DNA from: a virus
Taxonomy: Duplodnaviria; Heunggongvirae; Uroviricota; Caudoviricetes
DNA length: 6,252 bases
Reading direction: 5' to 3' (one strand)
IMG/VR virus record: IMGVR_UViG_2698536307_000011
Below the pieces are notes generated by a model. It did not search any database and was not told the origin of the DNA. It saw nothing but the letters and a program-made list of their open reading frames with translations. Position numbers and translations under genes: made by a program. Position 1 is the first letter of the stretch. The number at the start of each line of letters is the position of its first letter. This document shows, in pieces, positions 4,193-5,272 of this stretch.

Positions 4193-4361
4193 CACTTATT
4201 TTCCCTCGCTCGCTTTTGCGGACCTTTTTTGTATCCGCACCACGCCCGGCGCATACCAACCACAGAGCCTTTCGGGGGGAGCTTATGGAGTGGTCAGTGT
4301 GACTTTCTCTGTGGGCAGATCGCTCCCGGGCGTTGGCTCACCCACCCAAAGGAACGTCACG

Positions 4362-4794
4362 ATGTTTGGTATTTTTGGTAAAAAAAGCCCGCAGAGCGGC
4401 AACGGAAATTAAAAAGTTTGAAAAACGCGATCTGGCACAGGTGGTGATTAACGCCGCATACCTGGTGGCCTGTGCAGATGGTGAATGTGAGGCTTCCTAG
4501 AAAGCGAAGATCGAACAGGTACTGCGTAATCAGCCTGCGCTGTACGCGTTTACGTCAGAAATTAATGCGATTAGCGCAACCATTATCGGTCAGCTGGATA
4601 CGAACTTTAAAACTGGTCGTCGTGCGGCGTTACGTGAGATCGAGGATGTGAAACACGATACGCGTGAAGCGGAAGATGTGCTGGATGTGGCGGTGGCCAT
4701 TGCGGAGGCAGACGGCGAAATTGAGCCGGAAGAGCGCAAGGTGCTGGAAGAGATTGCCGGTGTTCTGGGTCTTCGTCTGGAGAATTACCTGTGA
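4362..4794 (+). pseudogene. TerB-family (tellurite-resistance TerB-like) gene disrupted by a frameshift in an A7 tract (4380-4386) and an in-frame amber codon (TAG 4498-4500)
   Basis: ATG 4362 with SD AAGGA (4348-4352) opens MFGIFGKK, which hits a stop at 4410 in frame 0. The +1 frame continues ARRAATEIKKFEKRDLAQVVINAAYLVACADGECEAS-TAG-KAKIEQVL...DVLDVAVAIAEADGEIEPEERKVLEEIAGVLGLRLENYL to TGA 4792-4794. Both ADGE..E repeats align with E. coli TerB (ASDGVSSEEKQK and AKSDGNFDDDEKSAVREIA) as recalled. Confidence 0.65.
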
Positions 4795-4958
4795 CGGTAA
4801 AACTGCGCCTGACTGTGGCTGCACTCCTGCTGTTTCTGGTGGTGATGGTGGATTTCACCAGCAGAATCATGTCGGTGCTGGCGGATGGGGTGCTGGTCTG
4901 CGGCATTATGGTATTGCTGTGGCCGGTGATAAAAAGAAACAGCCTGCATAATGCTTGA
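4791..4958 (+). CDS. Small two-helix membrane protein (about 55 aa; GTG 4791 overlapping the TerB-like stop as GTGA, or ATG 4845)
   Basis: ORF MTVKLRLTVAALLLFLVVMVDFTSRIMSVLADGVLVCGIMVLLWPVIKRNSLHNA has two hydrophobic segments and CTG-rich codon usage. It is missing from the track because it is under 60 aa. Not recognised as a named family. Confidence 0.45.
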   Translation: MTVKLRLTVAALLLFLVVMVDFTSRIMSVLADGVLVCGIMVLLWPVIKRNSLHNA

Positions 4959-5159
4959 TTTTTTTGTTTGCTGTTTATTAAAAACACTTCTGCATGGTGA
5001 ATCCCCCTGTGCGGTGGGGCAATCAGCAAGAAGGAATATGGGGTAATCGCGGATTCAGGTGCTGATACTGAATTCACCGGGAGGCACCCGGCACCATGCT
5101 TTGCCACAAAAGTGTTATTTCTGTTTTTCTCAAACTATCATCGTTATCCCTTTATTTTC

Positions 5160-5186
5160 GGCTGCGCATGGCGCGGCCTTTTTTTT
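5160..5186 (+). terminator. Intrinsic terminator between the cargo locus and the esterase gene
   Basis: Imperfect stem GGCTGCGC (5160-5167) / GCGCGGCC (5171-5178) with one mismatch, loop ATG, followed by T8 at 5179-5186. Confidence 0.55.
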
Positions 5187-5272
5187 ACGACCAGCCACTG
5201 GCAGATGGTCATCCTGTGATTTGATTCCGCTTCCGGCTTTTTAACTCTGTTCCTCTACACGGGAGAAATTCG

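Follow-up and report, generated by a model that had tools for sequence, protein, structure and literature searches.

A tciA–tciB cassette and its leader RNA in the Shiga toxin slot of an Escherichia coli lambdoid prophage

The cargo slot and its borders

The DNA analysed here, hereafter the window, is a stretch of 6,252 nucleotides (nt) from IMG/VR virus record IMGVR_UViG_2698536307_000011 that represents the late region of an Escherichia coli lambdoid prophage. Its segment from 4193 to 5272 lies between three tRNA genes and an esterase gene and carries a damaged allele of the phage accessory genes tciA and tciB behind a leader RNA. Read along the plus strand, on which these features and those from Q to the esterase gene lie, a weakened intrinsic terminator 3' of the tRNAs (4205–4236) is followed by the tciA 5' leader (4237–4361), a pseudogene of tciA (TerB family, 4362–4794), the intact 55-amino acid (aa) open reading frame (ORF) of tciB (4791–4958), a small RNA (sRNA) of the STnc100 family related to PasD (4963–5135), and an intrinsic terminator-like hairpin with a T8 run ahead of the esterase gene (5160–5186; 8-bp stem with seven G-C pairs). 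The leader, the sRNA, and this last terminator had been missed by a first-pass annotation covering the same coordinates. The entire segment has a 100% identical counterpart in the chromosomes of at least 22 complete E. coli genomes, O157:H7 493/89 among them, and 646 of 5,426 genomes contain it at a coverage of 80% or more; RefSeq labels the identical DNA “tellurite resistance TerB family protein” followed by “DUF3927 family protein”.

Upstream, the late operon is marked by a Q antiterminator gene (3046–3741; Pfam Phage_antiter_Q PF06323, 310 bits), whose product is 98% identical to that of a gene named “bacteriophage antitermination protein Q” by RefSeq in a related locus with a 100% identical cargo slot. 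A PR'-like promoter (3725–3753) and a tR'-like intrinsic terminator (3796–3819), together covering 3725–3825, were found by consensus scan only, as was a promoter-like site at 3905–3933 ahead of the tRNAs. The tRNA genes themselves (3943–4192; ARAGORN and Rfam tRNA matches) are of the ileZ-argN-argO type with anticodons CAT, TCG, and TCT, and ARAGORN reads the trio as Met-CAT/Arg/Arg while RefSeq labels the CAT one as tRNA-Ile (Ile/Arg/Arg). On the far side, the 5' part of a nanS-p type 9-O-acetyl esterase gene (DUF1737 plus SASA; PF08410, 57.7 bits; PF03629, 46.7 bits) runs from 5273 out of the window at 6252 and is homologous to Sakai ECs_1207 and ECs_1527. The late-region order of Q gene, PR'/tR'-like elements, tRNA trio, cargo, and NanS-p esterase gene that the first-pass annotation had proposed is thus complete, with each element where it had been placed (Pfam, ARAGORN, and scans).

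This is also the order of the stx2 phage Sp5 of strain Sakai, which runs Q, ileZ2-argN2-argO2, stx2A, stx2B, and esterase gene ECs_1207. Aligned to Sp5 with blastn, the window is 90.6% identical over 3905–4241, comprising the tRNA promoter, tRNAs, and terminator up to the start of the stx2A upstream region, and homology returns at 4974–5020, at 5070–5099, and finally at 5260–6185 into the esterase gene. The first two of these returning blocks are the STnc100 sRNA, which is 206 nt long in Sp5 (207.7 bits) and lies 75 nt after stx2B, whereas the window carries a shorter variant of 173 nt (Rfam RF02076, 100.8 bits against a gathering score of 47) that begins 4 nt after the tciB stop codon. Like other STnc100/PasD sRNAs (RF02076), it is located directly upstream of a sialate esterase gene; the relationship of PasD and STnc100 has been described previously (bioRxiv 10.64898/2026.05.13.724894), and the STnc100-family sRNA after stx2B is known to adjoin AsxR in Sakai Sp5 (PMC12370729).

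Because homology to the stx2 phage ends at 4241, this position is the left border of the cargo slot, and STnc100 is its right border, so that the gap in homology defines the cargo cassette as 4242 to about 4962. Going by these alignments, tciAB and stx2AB are alternative cassettes in one exchangeable slot, and the equivalence to the Stx slot that the first-pass annotation had drawn from gene order proved exact, with homologous flanks on both sides. Its view that the slot holds no toxin-like ORFs was also borne out, as blastn against the Sakai Sp5 stx2 region (Sp5 5066–6422) matched the flanks only and revealed no stx-like sequence in the window. For the Q gene of the window, upstream of 3905, blastn detected no nucleotide similarity to Sp5. 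The post-tRNA terminator, missed by the terminator scan, emerged from the comparison of loci, in which related copies have GGCTCGCTTCGGCGGGCC plus a T run and the window has CTCGCTTTTGCGGACC plus a T run; in the scan itself, terminators bracket the cassette. With 4241 as its left border and STnc100 as its right, the slot is now delimited to the nucleotide, which should help to read “Stx-like” prophages that are stx-negative.

TciA and TciB across phages

The reconstructed 143-aa product of 4362–4794 belongs to the TerB family, as the first-pass annotation had suspected, with 45.7 bits to Pfam TerB PF05099 (cut-off 24.4), a match to PHROG 632 at E=2.1e-68, and an alignment of residues 15–137 to residues 21–144 of the solved TerB structure 2JXU_A at E=4e-7. 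An AlphaFold2 model of its homologue P0001 (96% identical) is all-helical with seven helices (predicted local distance difference test score 87, predicted template modelling score 0.81). Its best match in the PDB is the TerB-like 2H5N (template modelling [TM] score 0.55–0.64, probability 1.0, E 0.014), with the equally TerB-like 2OU3 at rank 20 (TM score 0.43, E 2.4); these E-values are weak, and no PDB entry matched at E≤0.001. Among NCBIfam profiles, none scored above its cut-off. Across homologues, residues D39, G40, and E46 as well as D117, G118, and E124 are invariant or nearly so and form paired acidic ADG....E motifs, which are candidate metal-binding sites.

The downstream ORF of 55 aa belongs to DUF3927, with 60.4 bits to Pfam PF13064 (cut-off 25) and a match to PHROG 1470 “TciB-like” at E=1.8e-29. 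Its GTG start overlaps the tciA stop codon as GTGA, and the product (RefSeq WP_000216649.1, also present at other loci) carries basic residues at either end, two hydrophobic segments, and, at its centre, a conserved (V/I)DFTS...LADG motif, from which we predict a small membrane protein, in line with the two-helix membrane ORF of the first-pass annotation. Two database ORFs of 170–197 aa (P0011 and P0064) fuse TerB and DUF3927, probably through a change of frame at the GTGA overlap. TciB-like ORFs are also annotated upstream of the esterase gene in phage 434 (OL657226.1, 43059–43151) and phage 2B8; neither phage is among the listed TciA matches, so tciB may persist alone.

The pair is not new, and the description as an uncharacterised two-gene cargo module thus stood as far as two-gene cargo is concerned but not as a discovery. 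It is the tciA/tciB pair named in phage P1, where tciA-tciB-tciC is flanked by tRNA genes, and it is catalogued as PHROG 632/1470, in Pfam, and in RefSeq. GenBank phage JLK-2012 shows the same order of Q, three tRNAs, tciA, tciB, yjhS (nanS-p), S, R, and Rz, a re-annotation of Sakai uses the term “TciA/TerB-like protein”, and TerB is listed as a conserved neighbour and synteny marker of the PasA/PasC prophage sRNAs (Zhu, Shabalina and Storz 2026 preprint). “Tellurite resistance” and “TciB-like inhibition of cell division”, the labels in current use, are annotation by homology. In the literature we found no experiments on tciA/tciB beyond an essentiality screen and transcript profiling of P1. 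As originally posed the finding is therefore ordinary, because the module had already been named and annotated and the window copy is a pseudogene; what we add is the exact definition of the slot, evidence for constraint on tciA, and a well-supported and apparently uncatalogued leader common to tciA and the ant genes of Stx phages.

The pair is widespread well beyond E. coli prophages. Using tblastn, we detected TciA in 132 phage records that include P1/P7/D6-type plasmids, the N4-like phages Pollock and FSL SP-058/076, Pseudomonas and Vibrio phages, and Erwinia and Salmonella jumbo phages, and TciB, wherever detected in these records, lies directly downstream of TciA. The two genes are adjacent in P1, P7, Pollock, FSL SP-058/076, Fostie, and pSal-SNUABM-04. 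A search with one genome per species yielded 11 loci with a TciA relative, in hosts including Pantoea, Pseudescherichia, Franconibacter, Enterobacter pulveris, Buttiauxella, Dryocola, and an Aeromonadaceae genome; all 11 have a small hydrophobic ORF immediately 3' of tciA, and in seven, from other genera or lineages, the pair sits between a Q-like gene and holin/lysozyme/spanin genes. Of 257 fetched loci, which were not de-replicated, 242 have a small hydrophobic ORF resembling TciB behind tciA, at a spacing of -7 to +4 nt. Intact frames recur at the same Q-tRNA-nanS-p position as in JLK-2012, and tciA is intact in 61 of 81 E. coli-like copies. Since intact, conserved pairs are found elsewhere, the two ORFs are neither an isolated juxtaposition nor a mere decayed remnant.

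Sequence divergence points in the same direction: tciA has a ratio of non-synonymous to synonymous divergence (dN/dS) of 0.008–0.03 (about 0.02) where dS is unsaturated (0.85–1.6) and is therefore under strong purifying selection, and tciB has values of 0.12–0.5. The module is real and under selection, and tciA ranks with the more tightly constrained accessory genes that enterobacterial phages carry, common to temperate, plasmid-borne, N4-like, and jumbo phages. Strong constraint combined with this wide spread makes tciA a reasonable target for experiments.

Phage tRNA genes lie beside tciAB in unrelated phage types, namely Ile/Arg/Arg or Asn/Thr/Gly in lambdoid prophages, Asn/Thr plus Ile in P1, Trp/Cys in jumbo Machinavirus phages, and Ser in a Franconibacter prophage. 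They lie up to 700 nt upstream of tciAB in 108 of 210 loci, for which both a shared cargo hot-spot and a functional link are conceivable.

The window allele itself is broken, as the first-pass annotation had noted. Relative to the intact tciA of JLK-2012, an additional A (A7 for A6, 4380–4386) shifts the frame past codon 8, and codon 46 reads TAG instead of GAG (4498–4500), placing an amber stop at Glu46, which is invariant in every alignment that we made and belongs to the first ADG....E (ADGxxxxxE) motif. The Prokaryotic Genome Annotation Pipeline (PGAP) likewise flags a pseudogene with “internal stop”, modelled from TTG at 4366. This tciA is dead and the module non-functional for TciA, and expression of TciB has probably been lost along with it.

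We determined the state of tciA in the window and the 80 most similar IMG/VR loci and found, besides the 61 intact genes, 16 with both lesions, two with TAG46 only, and two with the A insertion only. An 81-nt stretch around codon 46 occurs in 650 complete E. coli records, 338 of them with the exact TAG version, and the protein database holds large clusters of truncated TciA (hundreds of members) beside clusters of intact 143-aa proteins. The doubly damaged allele reaches genomes of O157:H7, O26:H11, O103:H2, and O111:H8, and in one database protein Trp (TGG) takes the place of the amber codon.

An allele so widespread, with 338 records, could be suspected to work by recoding, either through slippage on A7 combined with amber read-through or through a start at TTG 4366 with suppression; the PGAP start would leave the stop as the sole lesion, and 142-aa database proteins beginning MVFLVKK.. 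do exist on A7 alleles. However, intact alleles have A6 and GAG and need no recoding, the two lesions also occur separately, Glu46 is invariant in its motif, none of the three tRNAs is a suppressor, and the leader of the same allele is damaged as well. We consider recoding hardly credible and have rejected the idea that programmed frameshifting or amber suppression rescues the window allele, on the grounds of the separate lesions, the A6/GAG intact alleles, and the invariant Glu46.

The lesions could also mean that the region is a functionless, decaying remnant whose ORFs appear conserved by accident of recent common descent. The window copy has at least four lesions when two in the leader are counted (G>A in P0, a T missing from helix B, A7, and TAG46), and truncated variants are many. 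Yet this account holds for the window allele only, since intact genes come from ten genera or more and from at least four unrelated phage types, dN/dS is around 0.02, gene order is conserved, and even the non-coding leader has compensatory changes. For the family as a whole, selection on tciA and covariation in the leader have already refuted it, and as an explanation of the region we regard it as very improbable.

The leader RNA ahead of tciA

The leader of ca. 125 nt (4237–4361) occupies the interval between the post-tRNA terminator and the tciA start codon and is conserved across genera. Between lineages whose tciA genes are saturated at synonymous sites (proportion of synonymous differences 0.73), it is still 74% identical, and compensatory changes are obvious among the unique upstream sequences of 213 loci. 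In the window, its elements are a P0 hairpin (4237–4252), helix A (4260–4267 with 4307–4314), an anti-Shine–Dalgarno (anti-SD) motif CCTTT (4268–4272) facing the Shine–Dalgarno (SD) sequence AAAGG (4348–4352), and helix B (4277–4282 with 4336–4343).

Applied to 23 lineages, RNAalifold returned two stacked helices, CCUUU:AAAGG, which includes the SD, and the 10–12 bp helix B (GGGUGAGCCAG with CUGGCUCACCC), with double changes in seven of 14 pairs. The stretch immediately 5' of the anti-SD pairs, as helix A (CCACAGAG with CUCUGUGG), with the loop enclosed by helix B, which results in an H-type pseudoknot. Across all three helices, 91% of cells are paired, compared to 37–56% with slid partners; 12 of 22 pairs have changed on both sides, and none of 500 shuffles reached any of the four measures. 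On a covariance-model alignment made without helix A, this helix is 84% paired with five of eight pairs compensated. Because MAFFT and model alignments misregister helix A in Pantoea-type and ant-type copies, it was also tested free of alignment by comparing the duplex energy of the 9 nt before the anti-SD with the enclosed loop to that with shuffled loops, and the true loop paired better in ten of 14 variants (p≤0.024). Helix A exists in nine distinct Watson–Crick versions, e.g., CCGUAGAG/CUCUACGG, CUGAGAA/UUCUCAG, or CCAAAGA/UCUUUGG, and the anti-SD and SD co-vary as CCTTT/AAAGG, CCTTA/TAAGG, and CTTTT/AAAAG, always ending 6–12 nt before the start codon. The leader is thus a conserved pseudoknot, supported by covariation, whose long composite stem pairs the SD.

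Intact leaders fold with the SD paired in three of four lineage representatives (z -2.5 to -2.9). The window leader still scores 84 bits with covariance model R1 (4254–4367) but is damaged by a G>A change at 4239 in the P0 hairpin and by loss of the T of GGGTGAGC (the U of GGGUGAGC in helix B), and it is no more stable than shuffles (z -0.58). Both leader models, R1 and R2, also match window positions 54–180 weakly at full length (17–19 bits, E 0.07–0.18) with no real ORF behind, probably by chance or as a relic.

The leader appears to be unreported and uncatalogued. At E≤1, Rfam 15 had no match to it in the window (4237–4361), in eight intact loci, or in Sp5 upstream of ant; weak matches to suhB and anti-hemB lie upstream of the leader and under threshold. 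We rejected the possibility that it is a Pas sRNA on grounds of position, as PasA/PasC separate the esterase gene from the holin gene and PasD/STnc100 immediately precedes the esterase gene. The literature searched contained no account of a structured leader ahead of ant or tciA, though one may exist beyond the searchable literature, and a genetic study of the Phi24B ant gene does not mention such a leader (PMC3064807).

The same architecture precedes other phage genes. Leader models matched full-length copies with wholly different helix sequences ahead of a Bro-N gene, a KilA-N gene, and a 254–268-aa ORF with a match to tail-tip family PF09327, and between tciA-type and ant-type copies the helices are completely different while the architecture is kept. 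The 62.7-kb Sakai Sp5 has exactly one copy (63 bits; L257:11700–11819), between the endolysin gene and the “antirepressor” ECs_1214; others lie in our loci L260–L264, L184 (3875–3991), L185 (3113–3230), L006 (9466–9566), and L012 (4946–5049). With blastn, the ant-type leader was found in 305 phage records, always just ahead of an ant/KilA-N gene, and its carriers include VT2-Sakai, many Stx1a/Stx2a phages, P13374 (O104:H4), the Salmonella phages ST64B and SE1, and Klebsiella phages. Ant-type copies also differ among each other, with helix B as GAUGACCCUUG/CAAGGUUCAUC in Sp5 and GAUGAGCCCUG/CAGGGUUCAUC in P13374, helix A as CACAGAA/UUCUGUG or CCAAAGA/UCUUUGG, and SD pairing as CCUUA/UAAGG in one copy. 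Outside the seed, jumbo phage pSal-SNUABM-04 has a tciA-type leader (69–76 bits). Neither R1 nor R2 detected a leader in P1, in Pollock, in distant homologues of 50% identity (L013 and L014), or upstream of stx2A.

The stx2A 5' region of Sp5 (L257:5018–5110) nevertheless resembles both ends of the leader (..ATCTGCGCC.. and ..CCAAAAGGAAC..ATG) without the pseudoknot core, which suggests that cassettes are exchanged inside a shared frame.

From these distributions we propose, tentatively and with slightly less than even confidence, a new class of pseudoknotted, SD-sequestering RNAs that would control translation of accessory genes in phage late transcripts in response to a general intracellular signal such as an ion, temperature, or a phage or host factor. 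Its order would be P0, 5' strand of helix A, anti-SD CCUUU, helix B, variable inner hairpin, 3' strand of A, 3' strand of B, SD, and AUG, and its targets tciA in lambdoid prophages and jumbo Machinaviruses, ant/KilA-N where it follows the endolysin gene (Stx1/Stx2 phages, ST64B, and Klebsiella phages), and a tail-tip-like gene. If true, this would be a new riboswitch-like or operator class inside some of the most intensively studied pathogenic phages, and with its position ahead of ant in Stx1/Stx2 phages the leader is a candidate for post-transcriptional control inside the Shiga toxin late operon.

Rather than a switch, the leader could be a constitutive element, i.e., a signal that stabilises or processes the mRNA, a fixed translational damper, or the core of an sRNA, and we see this as plausible though on balance doubtful. 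No ligand has been assigned, and one architecture ahead of genes as unrelated as ant/KilA-N, tciA, and a tail-tip-like ORF is more easily understood as a general cassette for expression than as a metabolite sensor dedicated to one gene. Against a constitutive role, the SD co-varies with a conserved anti-SD and the pairing always ends close to the start codon, which points to control of initiation, and alternative folds with a free SD are predicted for the E. coli type.

Expression and role of the module

Taken together, we are fairly confident in reading the region as an allele of a phage accessory module, tciA-tciB, that most likely is late-operon cargo, with translation gated by the leader and TciA tethered by TciB. 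RNA polymerase modified by Q at PR' would read through tR', the tRNA terminator, and the leader, so that the module, like stx2, would be made late in lytic growth. The leader would hold translation of tciA off or low, or time it, until some signal opens the pseudoknot and the SD stem, and tciB would be translated via coupling to tciA. TciB is predicted to form a two-segment hairpin in the inner membrane with both basic ends probably cytoplasmic, and it may tether the soluble, acidic, probably metal-binding TerB domain of TciA to this membrane by analogy to TerB with its membrane partner TerC, a partnership attributed to Turkovicova 2016 where that work is cited in PMC11003894. TciA held at the membrane could then adjust the envelope or ion physiology of the infected cell, with ion or metal handling, control of envelope stress, and lysis timing as candidate roles.

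Several points weigh against this reading. Contact between TciA and TciB and the topology of TciB are deduced from protein sequence. The lack of a sigma-70-like site on the plus strand between 3933 and 5400 speaks for late expression, but the consensus scan behind it may miss promoters. In the commonest E. coli leader type, the nested minimum-free-energy fold leaves the SD unpaired, so alternative conformers are possible, and the leader is not obligatory for the module given that tciA of P1 and Pollock lacks it. The P1 tciABC genes were non-essential in a genome-wide CRISPR interference screen (PMC10695390), and in P1-like phage-plasmids the tci operon is a variable region that is missing from nearly half of one subgroup (PMC9603915). 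Finally, tciA of E. coli prophages is often decayed, as seen in the truncated clusters and the TAG context of 338 of 650 records, so its benefit to the resident prophage must be weak. Frequent decay in resident prophages fits a gene that helps the replicating phage rather than the lysogen.

This last point bears on the idea that the lysogen expresses tciAB as a module for lysogenic conversion or for defence against superinfecting phages or colicins. TerB-containing ter operons are linked to phage inhibition and colicin resistance in passages of PMC9603915 and PMC8123226, the same slot carries virulence cargo elsewhere, and the promoter-like site at 3905–3933 together with the weakened terminator could allow some read-through in lysogens. 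A TerB domain alone, however, does not make a ter system, and genes for terC/terD-family partners are absent at the locus, where the only neighbours are tRNAs, tciB, the sRNA, and nanS-p. In PADLOC-DB 2.0, the best match of TciA was PDC-S48 with 13.7 bits (E=0.006) over 35 residues and TciB had none, which is nothing credible, and we dropped a known defence system as the identity of the pair. The pair is also kept in strictly virulent N4-like phages (Pollock, FSL SP-058/076) and in jumbo phages of Machinavirus, for which there is no lysogen to protect, and its frequent decay in resident prophages speaks against selection in the lysogen. The association of TerB with phage resistance that the first-pass annotation had invoked thus found no support, and a lysogen-protecting role is less likely than one in lytic growth and, to our mind, improbable.

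Upstream of Q, the window carries a hok/sok locus, a DUF968 gene, and rusA, in this order. The hok/sok type I toxin-antitoxin locus (482–806) comprises sok RNA (RF01794, 114 bits, 482–656) and a Hok-like ORF (594–806) that RefSeq names hokD in a related prophage sharing a 100% identical cargo slot with the window. The short transcript from PR' to tR' (3727–3825) has weak Rfam matches resembling isrK, isrJ, and amino acid leaders, all under the gathering score, and is the positional analogue of the short late leader RNA of Stx phages. On the minus strand, RefSeq has a partial, pseudo “hypothetical protein” at 5153–5296 across the terminator and the nanS-p start that looks like an annotation artefact.

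Among known systems, the stx2AB cassette of Sakai Sp5 or 933W shares the place of the tciAB cassette after ileZ-argN-argO and a terminator and before STnc100/nanS-p in a Q-dependent late operon, but it encodes unrelated proteins and lacks the pseudoknot leader, of which only the ends are recognisable. The tciA-tciB-tciC operon of P1 (also P7, D6, and SJ46) resembles the window in its TerB-family TciA, 40.6% identical over all 143 residues, in a DUF3927 TciB directly after tciA, in adjoining tRNA genes, and in being non-essential accessory cargo. It differs in its third small gene tciC, where the window has no ORF after tciB but STnc100, in a tciA that lacks the pseudoknot leader and, unlike that of the window, is not a pseudogene, and in not being part of a lambdoid late operon.

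SD-sequestering pseudoknot leaders just upstream of a start codon are known from the SAM-II and preQ1-II riboswitch classes. Compared with these, our leader is alike in its pseudoknot and in the stem that pairs the ribosome-binding site, and it differs in having no Rfam match, an additional P0 hairpin, and a variable inner domain and in preceding functionally unrelated phage genes.

For the proteins, TerB of terZABCDE(F) with TerC shares with the pair the domain family, both acidic ADGxxxxxE-type motifs, and the combination of a soluble TerB protein with a membrane protein; in contrast, the window has no TerC, TerD, TerZ, or TerA genes, and the partner would be a 55-aa DUF3927 hairpin instead of the multi-pass TerC. 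DjlA is anchored in the inner membrane and has an N-terminal TerB-like domain to which TciA shows weak similarity (29.9 bits against a PRK09430 cut-off of 162). Unlike DjlA, TciA has neither a J domain nor a covalent membrane anchor, and DjlA offers a precedent for a TerB-like domain at the inner membrane.

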